The notes beneath the pieces were generated by a model. That model was not told the DNA's origin, made no database searches, and saw only the letters and a list, made by a program, of their open reading frames with translations. This document shows, piece after piece, positions 4,598 through 6,842 of a stretch of DNA of 64,000 bases. Origin of the DNA: Escherichia coli (GTDB lineage: Bacteria; Pseudomonadota; Gammaproteobacteria; Enterobacterales; Enterobacteriaceae); assembly GCF_030013595.1 (NCBI RefSeq), contig NZ_CP122768.1; one strand, 5' to 3'. The first letter of the stretch is position 1; each line of letters begins with the position of its first letter. The position numbers were made by a program, and so were the translations under genes.

Positions 4598-5144
4598 AAT
4601 TGTGCTGCGCGAAAGCAGACAACAATTTTCTTGCTTCACTATTGGCTGCCTGCATCACCATCCACGGACTGAACGCCCACGGTGTGGCATCAATACCGTG
4701 TAATACATCTGCTAAATCACACCATTGATAATCCATCACTTCATCATCATTGATCTGTAACGCACTGGTCGTGCGTGCGGCAAATACCGGACACACTTCA
4801 TTTTCCACAATGCCATTCGGATCGGTGGCGCGGTAGCGAAAGTCAGGATAGATAGATTCAGGAGGCGTAATTTCCACGCCAAGCTCATAACGGCAACGGC
4901 GGATCACTGCGTCTTCGTTGCTTTCTCCCAGTTGTGGGTGCCCACAAACCGAGTTAGTCCACACGCCAGGCCATGCTTTTTTGCTCAGTGCGCGGCGGGT
5001 AACTAATAATTGCCCTTTGGCATTAAACAGCCAACTGGAGAACGCGAGATGTAAGAGAGTGTCTGCCGTGTGTGCGGCATACTTTTCCAGCGTACCCGTG
5101 GGAACTCCCTGTGCATTCAATAAAATGACGTGTTCCGTTTGCAT
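4596..5144 (-). CDS. idi: Isopentenyl-diphosphate delta-isomerase (Nudix fold)
   Basis: 182-aa [28 protein letters not shown]...; matches recalled Idi. Confidence 0.93.
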
Positions 5145-5266
5145 AATTTCTCACATGTAATTCTAATCACTCATCATTATAGATAATTGAAGAGTGAAAT
5201 GATTAACCAAGTGAGCGTTTATCGACAACCGCCCGTTTTGAGCGGATGTCGACAGGTAAAAACCAT

Positions 5267-5392
5267 TTAAAAAAGCAGCATCATATATTTGAAGCGACTT
5301 TCAATGGCCATTGCAACACAGTCAGAAATGACAGGAATAGAGAGAGTAAAAAGCAACAACAGACTGAATATAGCGCGCATTAAAAGATTCAT
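5267..5392 (-). CDS. yqfG: Small hydrophobic protein (41 aa), YqfG-like
   Basis: Hand-translated minus-strand ORF MNLLMRAIFSLLLLFTLSIPVISDCVAMAIESRFKYMMLLF; ATG sits 1 nt after the uacT stop (TAATATG). Below the ORF-track size cut-off. Confidence 0.4.
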   Translation of the reverse strand: MNLLMRAIFSLLLLFTLSIPVISDCVAMAIESRFKYMMLLF

Positions 5393-5393
5393 A

Positions 5394-6842
5394 TTATTCT
5401 CCATGCTCATTTTTCTTCAGCTTGCGCATCAGAAGCCACATACGTACTGTCCTGACTTTTAAATCTTTATCAGAGACGGATTCCTTCACCAGATCAGCAT
5501 GATGCTGATAGCCATTAAAGAAGACGTTCAGCACAACGGCGCTAAGGGTTGCGAGCATAATGCCGCTATGCAGCAACGGTTGCAGTACGGCCGGTAACTT
5601 AGAAAAGAAATCGTGAGAGAGCGTCGGAGTCATGCCAACGCCGAGACTGATCGCCACAATATAGAGGTTGTAACGGTTGGTGGTGTAGTTACAGCGCGAC
5701 AGAATTCGAATTCCTGTCGCCAGTACCATGCCGAACATCACCAGCCCAGCACCGCCCAGCACAAATTGCGGAATGGAGGCGACCAGCACCGCCATTTTTG
5801 GCACCATGCCAAACAGGATTAATATAATTCCCGAAGAAATACACACCCAGCGGCTATGAACGCGCGTCACGCTAACCAGGCCAACGTTTTGTGAAAATGA
5901 CGTGTGGGGGAAGCTGTTAAACGTTCCGCCTATCATTGTCCCTACGCCATCGACACGCAGCCCGCGAATAATATCGTGTGAAGAGAGTTTACGACCGACT
6001 ATTTCACCCAGTGCCAGGAACATCCCCATCGACTCGATAAACACGATGATTAACACGGCAGTCATGGTCAGAATGGAAACGGGATCGAAAATCGGCATAC
6101 CAAATGACATCGGCGTGACAATCGCAAACCATGAAGCATCATGTAGCCCGGATAAATTGACTTCATTCATCATCCACGAAAGTAAAAAGCCAAATACAAT
6201 CCCCAGTAATACGGCGACGTTGGACATAAATCCTTTCGCATAGCGAGTAATGAGCAAGATAAAAATTAAGACGGCAAAGGAGATACCTAAATAAACGGGA
6301 TTACCATATTGCGGATTCCCTTTACCTCCTGCGGCCCAGTCAATACCCACCTGAATGATGCTAAGTCCGATAGAAGTAATAACCACACCGGTAACCAGTG
6401 GTGGGAATAAAGGCATCAAGCGACCGATAAGTGGCGCTAATAATGTGGTGATAAAACCCGCGGCGATAGTGGCACCAAATATCCCCAGCAGGCCGATATC
6501 CGGGTTCATCCCAATGGCTATCATTGGTGTTACAGCGGCGAAGGTCACCGACATAATCACCGGCAGGCGGATCCCCATAAAGCGGCCGATACCGATACAT
6601 TGCAATAATGTGACGATCCCGCAGCAAAAGAGATCCGAGCTAATGAGCATCGCAATAGCTTCTTTTGAGAGGCCCAGTCGGTCAGCAATCATAAGAGGAA
6701 CAGCGACTGCACCTGCGTACATGACAAGGACGTGTTGCAGACCGAGTATGATCAGCTTTCCTGGTGATAATATGCGGTCAACCTCATCAGTTGGGCGGTC
6801 TTGCCCTGAAGATGAGGGAAGTTGGGAATCTATGGCGCTCAT
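5394..6842 (-). CDS. uacT: Uric acid / xanthine permease, NCS2 family
   Basis: Long ORF 5394-6971; start placed at MSAIDSQLPSSSG (ATG 6842-6840) behind an AGGAG Shine-Dalgarno, giving 482 aa; polytopic membrane protein. Confidence 0.88.
   Translation of the reverse strand: MSAIDSQLPSSSGQDRPTDEVDRILSPGKLIILGLQHVLVMYAGAVAVPLMIADRLGLSKEAIAMLISSDLFCCGIVTLLQCIGIGRFMGIRLPVIMSVTFAAVTPMIAIGMNPDIGLLGIFGATIAAGFITTLLAPLIGRLMPLFPPLVTGVVITSIGLSIIQVGIDWAAGGKGNPQYGNPVYLGISFAVLIFILLITRYAKGFMSNVAVLLGIVFGFLLSWMMNEVNLSGLHDASWFAIVTPMSFGMPIFDPVSILTMTAVLIIVFIESMGMFLALGEIVGRKLSSHDIIRGLRVDGVGTMIGGTFNSFPHTSFSQNVGLVSVTRVHSRWVCISSGIILILFGMVPKMAVLVASIPQFVLGGAGLVMFGMVLATGIRILSRCNYTTNRYNLYIVAISLGVGMTPTLSHDFFSKLPAVLQPLLHSGIMLATLSAVVLNVFFNGYQHHADLVKESVSDKDLKVRTVRMWLLMRKLKKNEHGE

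Follow-up and report, generated by a model that had tools for sequence, protein, structure and literature searches.

In a 64,000-nucleotide stretch of Escherichia coli DNA (contig NZ_CP122768.1, called the window below), a 41-codon open reading frame (ORF) directly behind the urate permease gene uacT proved to be yqfG, a real and previously annotated E. coli gene. Its recovery is a rediscovery and adds nothing to the gene list. What is new here is the definition of a protein family around its product and the conserved pairing of uacT and yqfG. The family consists of proteins of 38-41 amino acids and is unmodelled, having no Pfam, NCBIfam or PDB counterpart. Judged from sequence, the peptide that the gene encodes is under purifying selection, and the family extends over Escherichia, Citrobacter, Kluyvera, Enterobacter, the Klebsiella oxytoca group and Apirhabdus/Erwinia. 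We regard YqfG as a single-pass membrane protein that is turned over by the protease RseP and that is, as we infer, made together with UacT.

Identity of yqfG and its junction with uacT

The yqfG coding sequence occupies positions 5267..5392 on the minus strand and comprises 41 codons followed by a TAA stop codon. It begins ATG AAT CTT TTA, ends CTT TTT TAA, and is translated as MNLLMRAIFSLLLLFTLSIPVISDCVAMAIESRFKYMMLLF. Besides the sequence and its translation, this assignment draws on the RefSeq annotation, purifying selection, a family HMM and an AF2 model. The upstream cistron, and the proposed partner, is uacT (also called ygfU; 5394..6842, minus strand), which is annotated as encoding an NCS2-family urate/H+ symporter.

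The junction between the two genes (5393..5402, minus strand) can be read directly from the sequence. The 3′ end of uacT is GGA GAA TAA, with the stop codon at 5394..5396, and a single T at 5393 separates it from the yqfG ATG at 5390..5392. A GGAG Shine-Dalgarno (SD) sequence (5399..5402) lies within the final two uacT codons, 6 nt 5′ of that ATG. The TAATATG junction claimed by the first-pass annotation is thus exact, and the tight coupling of the ORF to the uacT stop codon that it described is borne out; further genera have an almost identical junction. The ORF had also been called unlisted, which holds for the ORF track, where it is missing solely owing to a length cut-off, but not for RefSeq, where it is annotated. 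The position of the SD sequence inside uacT, together with an ATG that is only 1 nt past the stop codon, suggests coupled initiation and hence co-production of the two proteins. A promoter scan found no promoter-like site on the minus strand, with counts equal to the level of shuffled controls.

An in-frame ATG at 5410, present in the ORF list, would yield a 47-aa form of YqfG. We rejected this start because the extension is unconserved and because relatives have a blocking in-frame stop codon. A chance ORF was likewise excluded, since an unbroken frame occupies the corresponding position in E. albertii, in Citrobacter sp. R56 and in ten more contexts.

The DNA of the window matches, at 100% identity, RefSeq DNA that carries the annotation ‘yqfG: protein YqfG’ (WP_001050745.1), and in a tblastn comparison the window ORF and the WP_001050745.1 locus showed 100% identity over 41 aa. 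In the RefSeq record, as among the window ORFs, the gene has uacT upstream and idi downstream, with all three on one strand. The name YqfG, which the first-pass annotation had offered, is thus right, and we consider the identification as good as certain. It is also very probable that yqfG is a genuine coding gene co-expressed with uacT.

A 501-bp region around the ORF has a match in 5392 of 5426 complete E. coli genomes. We sampled full-length rows evenly along the ranking of E. coli matches to this 501-bp query, and in 14/14 such rows the features beneath the match were uacT, yqfG, yqfH (or a hypothetical protein) and idi. The YqfG of the window differs in one residue (L3 versus F3) from the K-12 allele WP_001010156.1, which begins MNFLMR and is the protein of the RseP studies discussed below. 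Natural E. coli alleles also include in-frame duplications and deletions in the transmembrane (TM) helix, giving proteins of 43, 45, 38 and 37 aa, while stop-loss or frameshifted alleles reach 57 or 62 aa (variants of both kinds are represented by proteins P0018, P0024, P0039, P0040, P0001 and P0005). The occurrence of TM-helix indel alleles within E. coli suggests some tolerance to changes in TM length.

The pattern of substitution in yqfG is that of a gene conserved for its peptide. Between E. coli and E. albertii, the gene has eight differences in 126 nt, of which seven are synonymous and one is nonsynonymous (dN/dS 0.03). Given 27 synonymous and 96 nonsynonymous sites, the binomial probability that at least seven of eight changes would be synonymous is approximately 2e-4. 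Over the same comparison, divergence is 0.063 per site in yqfG, versus 0.221 per site in the adjoining yqfG-idi spacer. The gene of Citrobacter sp. R56 retains the same 41 codons with no indels, at a dN/dS of 0.31 relative to E. coli, and values across all comparisons range from 0.03 to 0.33. Variable sites are concentrated at third codon positions, followed by first and then second positions: among seven 41-aa genes, 23, 11 and 35 of 40 codons vary at positions 1, 2 and 3, respectively, and among five 38-aa genes the corresponding counts are 25, 19 and 36 of 37. ORF length is exactly kept inside each of these two length types. The first-pass annotation had made its case depend on conservation of the frame in related species, and tblastn, dN/dS and codon-position counts all find the frame conserved.

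A family of small proteins paired with NCS2 permeases

A scan for UacT in 100,044 species genomes yielded 80 loci. With tblastn and inspection of ORFs, we found a YqfG-like ORF right behind the permease gene in three of these loci besides E. coli: in E. albertii (98% identity to the E. coli protein), in Citrobacter sp. R56 (54% identity, 41 aa, with a TAA-A-ATG junction) and in Kluyvera (31% identity, 38 aa, with its own SD sequence and 66 nt 3′ of the permease gene). An exhaustive profile search, run over 1.84 billion representatives, then retrieved 27 proteins with E-values of at most 1e-3, comprising about a dozen new clusters of 38-41 aa. By source name, the new clusters come from Citrobacter, Enterobacter cloacae, Enterobacter sp., Klebsiella michiganensis/oxytoca/pasteurii and Apirhabdus/Erwinia, and all are labelled hypothetical. 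A word-indexed protein search had found the protein in Escherichia, Shigella and cryptic Escherichia clades only, which suggested a genus-restricted orphan; the profile search and tblastn overturned this view.

The family is well separated from other sequences. In a search of 11,754 stop-to-stop pieces, an HMM built from 15 sequences gave its members E-values of at most 8e-16, versus at least 0.7 for all else, and the sole match of this HMM in the window was yqfG (E=1.5e-19). The peptide has an N-terminal Arg, a 24-residue hydrophobic stretch, an invariant Pro, a conserved xSRFx[FYW] motif and a short hydrophobic tail, most often with Phe as its last residue. In an alignment of 18 sequences, which is free of internal indels, the invariant residues are R6, L14, P20, R33 and F34, and the hydrophobic segment that separates the Arg from the xSRF motif has a constant length of 24 residues in all six genera. 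AF2 models YqfG as one helix (residues 3-40, pLDDT 85), and the charge bias weakly favours an N-in orientation. Scans of YqfG, YqfH and the 47-aa form against Pfam and NCBIfam gave no match other than a chance hit to ComGG (E=0.2), a comparison of eighteen YqfG family members with Pfam gave only scattered noise confined to single members, and a profile search of the PDB with the family gave no match.

Furthermore, the genes of this family occupy a consistent place. We compared 13 distinct contexts, namely nine looked-up representatives as well as E. coli, E. albertii, Citrobacter R56 and Kluyvera (a tenth representative looked up, L095, was left out because its upstream sequence is too short to judge). 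In all 13, a gene of the PF00860 (Xan_ur_permease) family encoding 481-490 aa lies directly upstream of the yqfG relative, on the same strand. On the other hand, the gene 3′ of yqfG differs, and may be idi, a convergent sigma-54 activator gene, a gene for an FdhF-like molybdoenzyme or a tyrosine-phosphatase-like gene. The distance from permease stop codon to yqfG start codon is between -1 and +3 nt in 8 of the 13 contexts, and 51-88 nt in the other five. The tight class includes six contexts with a gap of +1 nt, one with +3 nt and two with -1 nt (a TAATG overlap), and every tight junction has a G-rich, SD-like run 5-10 nt 5′ of the ATG. The wide class consists of four contexts with gaps of 51-88 nt, in addition to Kluyvera at 66 nt, in which an intercistronic hairpin precedes a yqfG with its own SD sequence. 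The hairpin is a GC-rich inverted repeat and the separate SD sequence follows it (L005, 4450..4515; L090, 2950..3000; L091, 1865..1952; L096, 2920..3000). This layout is a different and possibly regulated mode of expressing the small gene.

The associated permeases fall into two clades. Members of the first, which includes UacT, are 82-98% identical to each other, and those of the second (Enterobacter, Klebsiella and Apirhabdus) are 74-89% identical to each other but only 40-43% identical to the first; both clades occur in a purine-catabolic gene context with YgfT-like or FdhF-like genes. Distances among YqfG proteins and among their permeases are weakly correlated (r=0.20), and 445 of 5000 Mantel permutations gave a value at least as high. 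Neither the YqfG subtypes (41 aa with SIPAISE versus 38 aa with LPAVQQ) nor YqfG identities track the two-clade split of the permeases, when L085, L086/L087 and L093/L094 are compared with L002-L096. Replacement of the permease in situ and sequence saturation are both possible explanations of this mismatch.

The pairing is not reciprocal. There is no yqfG beside the UacT orthologues of C. freundii, Serratia oryzae, Pluralibacter, Morganella, Hafnia, Edwardsiella and Aeromonas, nor beside those of any non-enterobacterial relative that was inspected, and by the family HMM the xanQ-like permease gene elsewhere in the window has no yqfG-like companion. In C. freundii (L003, 4456..4790), yqfG and idi are both missing; behind uacT there is a terminator-like hairpin, and immediately after it comes the 3′ end of lysS, which is encoded on the opposite strand. 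The joint absence of yqfG and idi implies that the idi-yqfG segment beside uacT varies between species as a unit. In Serratia oryzae (L004, 4443..4547), an FdhF-like gene follows the uacT orthologue after only 55 nt. An ORF with an ATGA overlap there starts with MIRFWFAAALL, which faintly resembles the YqfG N terminus, and diverges afterwards; it may be the remnant of a deleted yqfG or simply a product of chance. Two metagenomic contigs also carry small divergent genes upstream of the permease gene (L091, 41..318, minus strand; L092, 1089..1366, minus strand), whose products of 41 aa and 33 aa do not match the YqfG HMM. We note that conserved adjacency of yqfG and the permease gene within the related Enterobacterales could in part be inherited synteny.

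The region downstream of yqfG

A conserved RNA stem-loop, recognized by folding and compensatory changes, lies 13 nt 3′ of the yqfG stop codon (5220..5254, minus strand). The folded stretch (5190..5275) has a minimum free energy of -26.7 kcal/mol, with z=-5.3 relative to shuffled controls. The stem-loop has 15 pairs, four of which carry compensatory double changes among four sequences from E. coli, E. albertii and Citrobacter R56. This element probably forms the 3′ end of the uacT-yqfG transcript or stabilises it. The lack of a U-run behind the stem sets it apart from canonical intrinsic terminators, and a terminator scan 3′ of yqfG also detected no canonical terminator, with counts at the level of shuffled controls. 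A search of positions 5000..5600 against Rfam gave only a chance match to an Enterococcus sRNA, with 20 bits versus a gathering score of 100.

Two further elements overlap this stem-loop. One is yqfH, a convergent small ORF of 23 aa (5199..5270, plus strand), which is known from RefSeq annotation and a sequence match to VanOrsdel 2018. It spans the stem-loop, and its stop codon overlaps that of yqfG by 4 nt. The peptide is poorly conserved: its E. albertii counterpart is 61% identical, and E. coli SCPM-O-B-8794 has a stop codon within the frame (the window ORF at 5199..5270 was compared with L073, 3586..3636, and L002, 1937..2005). As this weakly conserved ORF spans a conserved stem-loop, conservation in the region may act on the RNA and not on the YqfH peptide. 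The other element is a predicted constitutive sigma-70 promoter for idi (TTGTCG-18-AATCAT; 5199..5228, minus strand), which the table of Shimada 2014 assigns to the spacer ‘yqfG > idi’. When its hexamers are located in the window sequence, the -35 element falls within the 3′ arm of the stem-loop.

Candidate roles of YqfG

Hemm and colleagues (2008) reportedly listed YqfG among small membrane proteins, and its original detection with a chromosomal tag is credited to that study. With a literature score of 0.12, yqfG nonetheless counts as an essentially unstudied, ‘dark’ E. coli gene (PMC9976479), and cleavage by RseP is so far the only known property of its product. Akiyama's group showed that a fusion protein, HA-MBP-YqfG, is integrally membrane associated and is cut by RseP but not by the RseP E23Q mutant, and that proline substitutions in the YqfG TM segment suppress RseP loop mutants (PMC4597795). 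A second study from this group lists YqfG as a Class I RseP substrate that was positive in all four assays (PMC10470546, Table 1), with cleavage by plasmid-borne, chromosomal and purified RseP. The RseP experiments employed N-terminally tagged YqfG expressed from plasmids. In the supplement of PMC10470546, TMHMM divides the K-12 protein into MNFLMR, the TM segment AIFSLLLLFTLSIPVISDCVAMA and the tail IESRFKYMMLLF, with a predicted N-in/C-out topology. Our literature search found no paper that assigns YqfG a function or ties it to UacT and no physical or genetic interaction of the two, and yqfG does not appear in the main text of the Weaver 2019 preprint.

We propose the following working model. 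The yqfG gene would be the second cistron of the uacT transcript, and ribosomes that end synthesis of UacT would initiate on yqfG by means of the SD sequence within uacT and the ATG 1 nt past its stop codon, so that both proteins are made together. The 24-residue YqfG helix, kinked at the invariant Pro, would insert N-in/C-out, as predicted, and associate with the permease in the membrane, modulating its stability, assembly or activity. Intramembrane cleavage by RseP, a site-2 protease (S2P), limits the level of YqfG in published work with tagged constructs and would set its lifetime. The parts of this model differ in strength. Co-expression of yqfG with uacT is likely. The proposal of a permease-binding modulator derives from comparative analysis, in that the relatives always lie directly behind a UacT-type NCS2 permease gene, whatever lies downstream; that YqfG binds or modulates such a permease is a serious possibility, though one we hold at somewhat less than even chances. 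More tentatively still, YqfG might be the founding member of a group of small single-pass subunits or regulators that are dedicated to UacT-type NCS2 purine permeases and removed by RseP. YqfG is in any case not an obligate subunit, because many UacT orthologues occur without yqfG and because plasmid-borne ygfU, cloned alone, increases urate uptake (PMC9067508). Finally, and speculatively, the periplasmic tail, with ends such as LLF, FYF and LFF, might be read by a PDZ protease that binds C termini (DegS, RseP or Prc).

Other readings of the locus do not require a permease partner. YqfG could be a pre-peptide, in which signal peptidase I cuts off residues 1-23 as a signal peptide and the 18-aa DCVAMAIESRFKYMMLLF is released into the periplasm; RseP would then merely clear the leftover signal peptide. 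Like Sec signal peptides, YqfG is positively charged at its N terminus and has a hydrophobic core as well as a Pro that precedes small residues, and specifically it shows an n-h-c layout with an N-terminal Arg, 13 hydrophobic residues and the invariant Pro 3-4 residues before a small one. The RseP authors selected YqfG for its likeness to signal peptides, which are known RseP substrates, and remarked on that likeness (PMC4597795). By a rule-of-thumb reading, the 41-aa type obeys the -3/-1 rule (cleavage after V-I-S before D, or after A-I-S or A-V-S before E), as do some 38-aa members (after VQA or VRA), and the most conserved motif, SRFx[FYW], falls in the would-be mature part. However, the rule is broken in most 38/39-aa members, which have Q at -3 (QQA, QQG, QYA or QTA) and so fit signal peptidase I poorly. 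Unlike in Sec signal peptides, moreover, hydrophobicity continues past the putative site for a constant 24-residue span that is typical of a TM anchor, and AF2 gives one unbroken helix. Full-length tagged YqfG also builds up in cells without RseP (PMC4597795, PMC10470546). We therefore judge a released peptide to be improbable.

Two alternatives are weaker still. If the act of translating yqfG mattered and not its peptide, coupled ribosomes reaching within 13 nt of the stem-loop could shield the mRNA 3′ end from Rho or RNases, or could tune read-through into idi. The tight uacT/yqfG junction, the conserved and covarying stem-loop just 3′ of yqfG and the overlap of the idi promoter with the stem would all suit such an effect. 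It is nevertheless very unlikely, as it does not account for constraint on the amino acids (dN/dS of 0.03-0.33, five residues that never vary, and spacing that stays fixed at approximately 30% identity), and as the family persists both where the downstream gene and spacer are wholly different and where a gap of 51-88 nt and a separate SD sequence uncouple yqfG from the permease stop codon. Least credible, in our view, is a Hok-like type I toxin that is restrained by RseP and by convergent antisense RNA from yqfH. A yqfG that always follows a permease gene as its second cistron, usually with stop/start coupling, is unlike autonomous toxin-antitoxin loci, and the annotated overlap with yqfH, the sole overlapping element, amounts to only 4 nt, even though YqfG is a small hydrophobic type II peptide and a convergent transcript or ORF does overlap the 3′ end of its gene. 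RseP also cleaves HokB and HokE (PMC10470546), but toxicity is reported for the Hok proteins and, in the portions of PMC4597795 and PMC10470546 consulted, not mentioned for YqfG.

Returning to YqfG as a possible partner of the permease, the comparative result gives a protein known only for its cleavage a concrete context: it occurs in at least six enterobacterial genera, is labelled ‘hypothetical’ outside Escherichia, and gains the permease-partner hypothesis from its invariable position after a urate-type permease gene within purine-catabolic clusters. Probiotic strains are being engineered with UacT to lower uric acid (PMC9067508), so a modulator such as YqfG would carry practical as well as basic interest. 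If the hypothesis is true, the nucleobase-cation symporter family would have in YqfG its first known accessory protein, and its coupled synthesis and removal by RseP would link urate uptake to envelope proteolysis. We know of no NCS2 transporter with an accessory subunit.

Small proteins that act on membrane partners include KdpF, CydX, AcrZ and MgtS. Of these, CydX and KdpF have a single TM segment and are co-transcribed and co-conserved with their partners. YqfG is similar in having a single TM helix within a size range of 29-41 aa, and in that its gene adjoins, and is co-conserved with, the gene for a polytopic membrane protein. However, it has no sequence similarity to CydX or KdpF, many UacT orthologues do without it, and UacT is active alone. 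YqfG also resembles the other Class I RseP substrates that are described, namely YkgR, HokB, HokE, Blr and YshB, in its predicted type II topology with a short periplasmic tail and in the helix-destabilising residues of its TM segment (Pro20 and Ser). Membership of this class is set by the protease rather than by homology or function, and thus tells how YqfG is removed, not what its role is.
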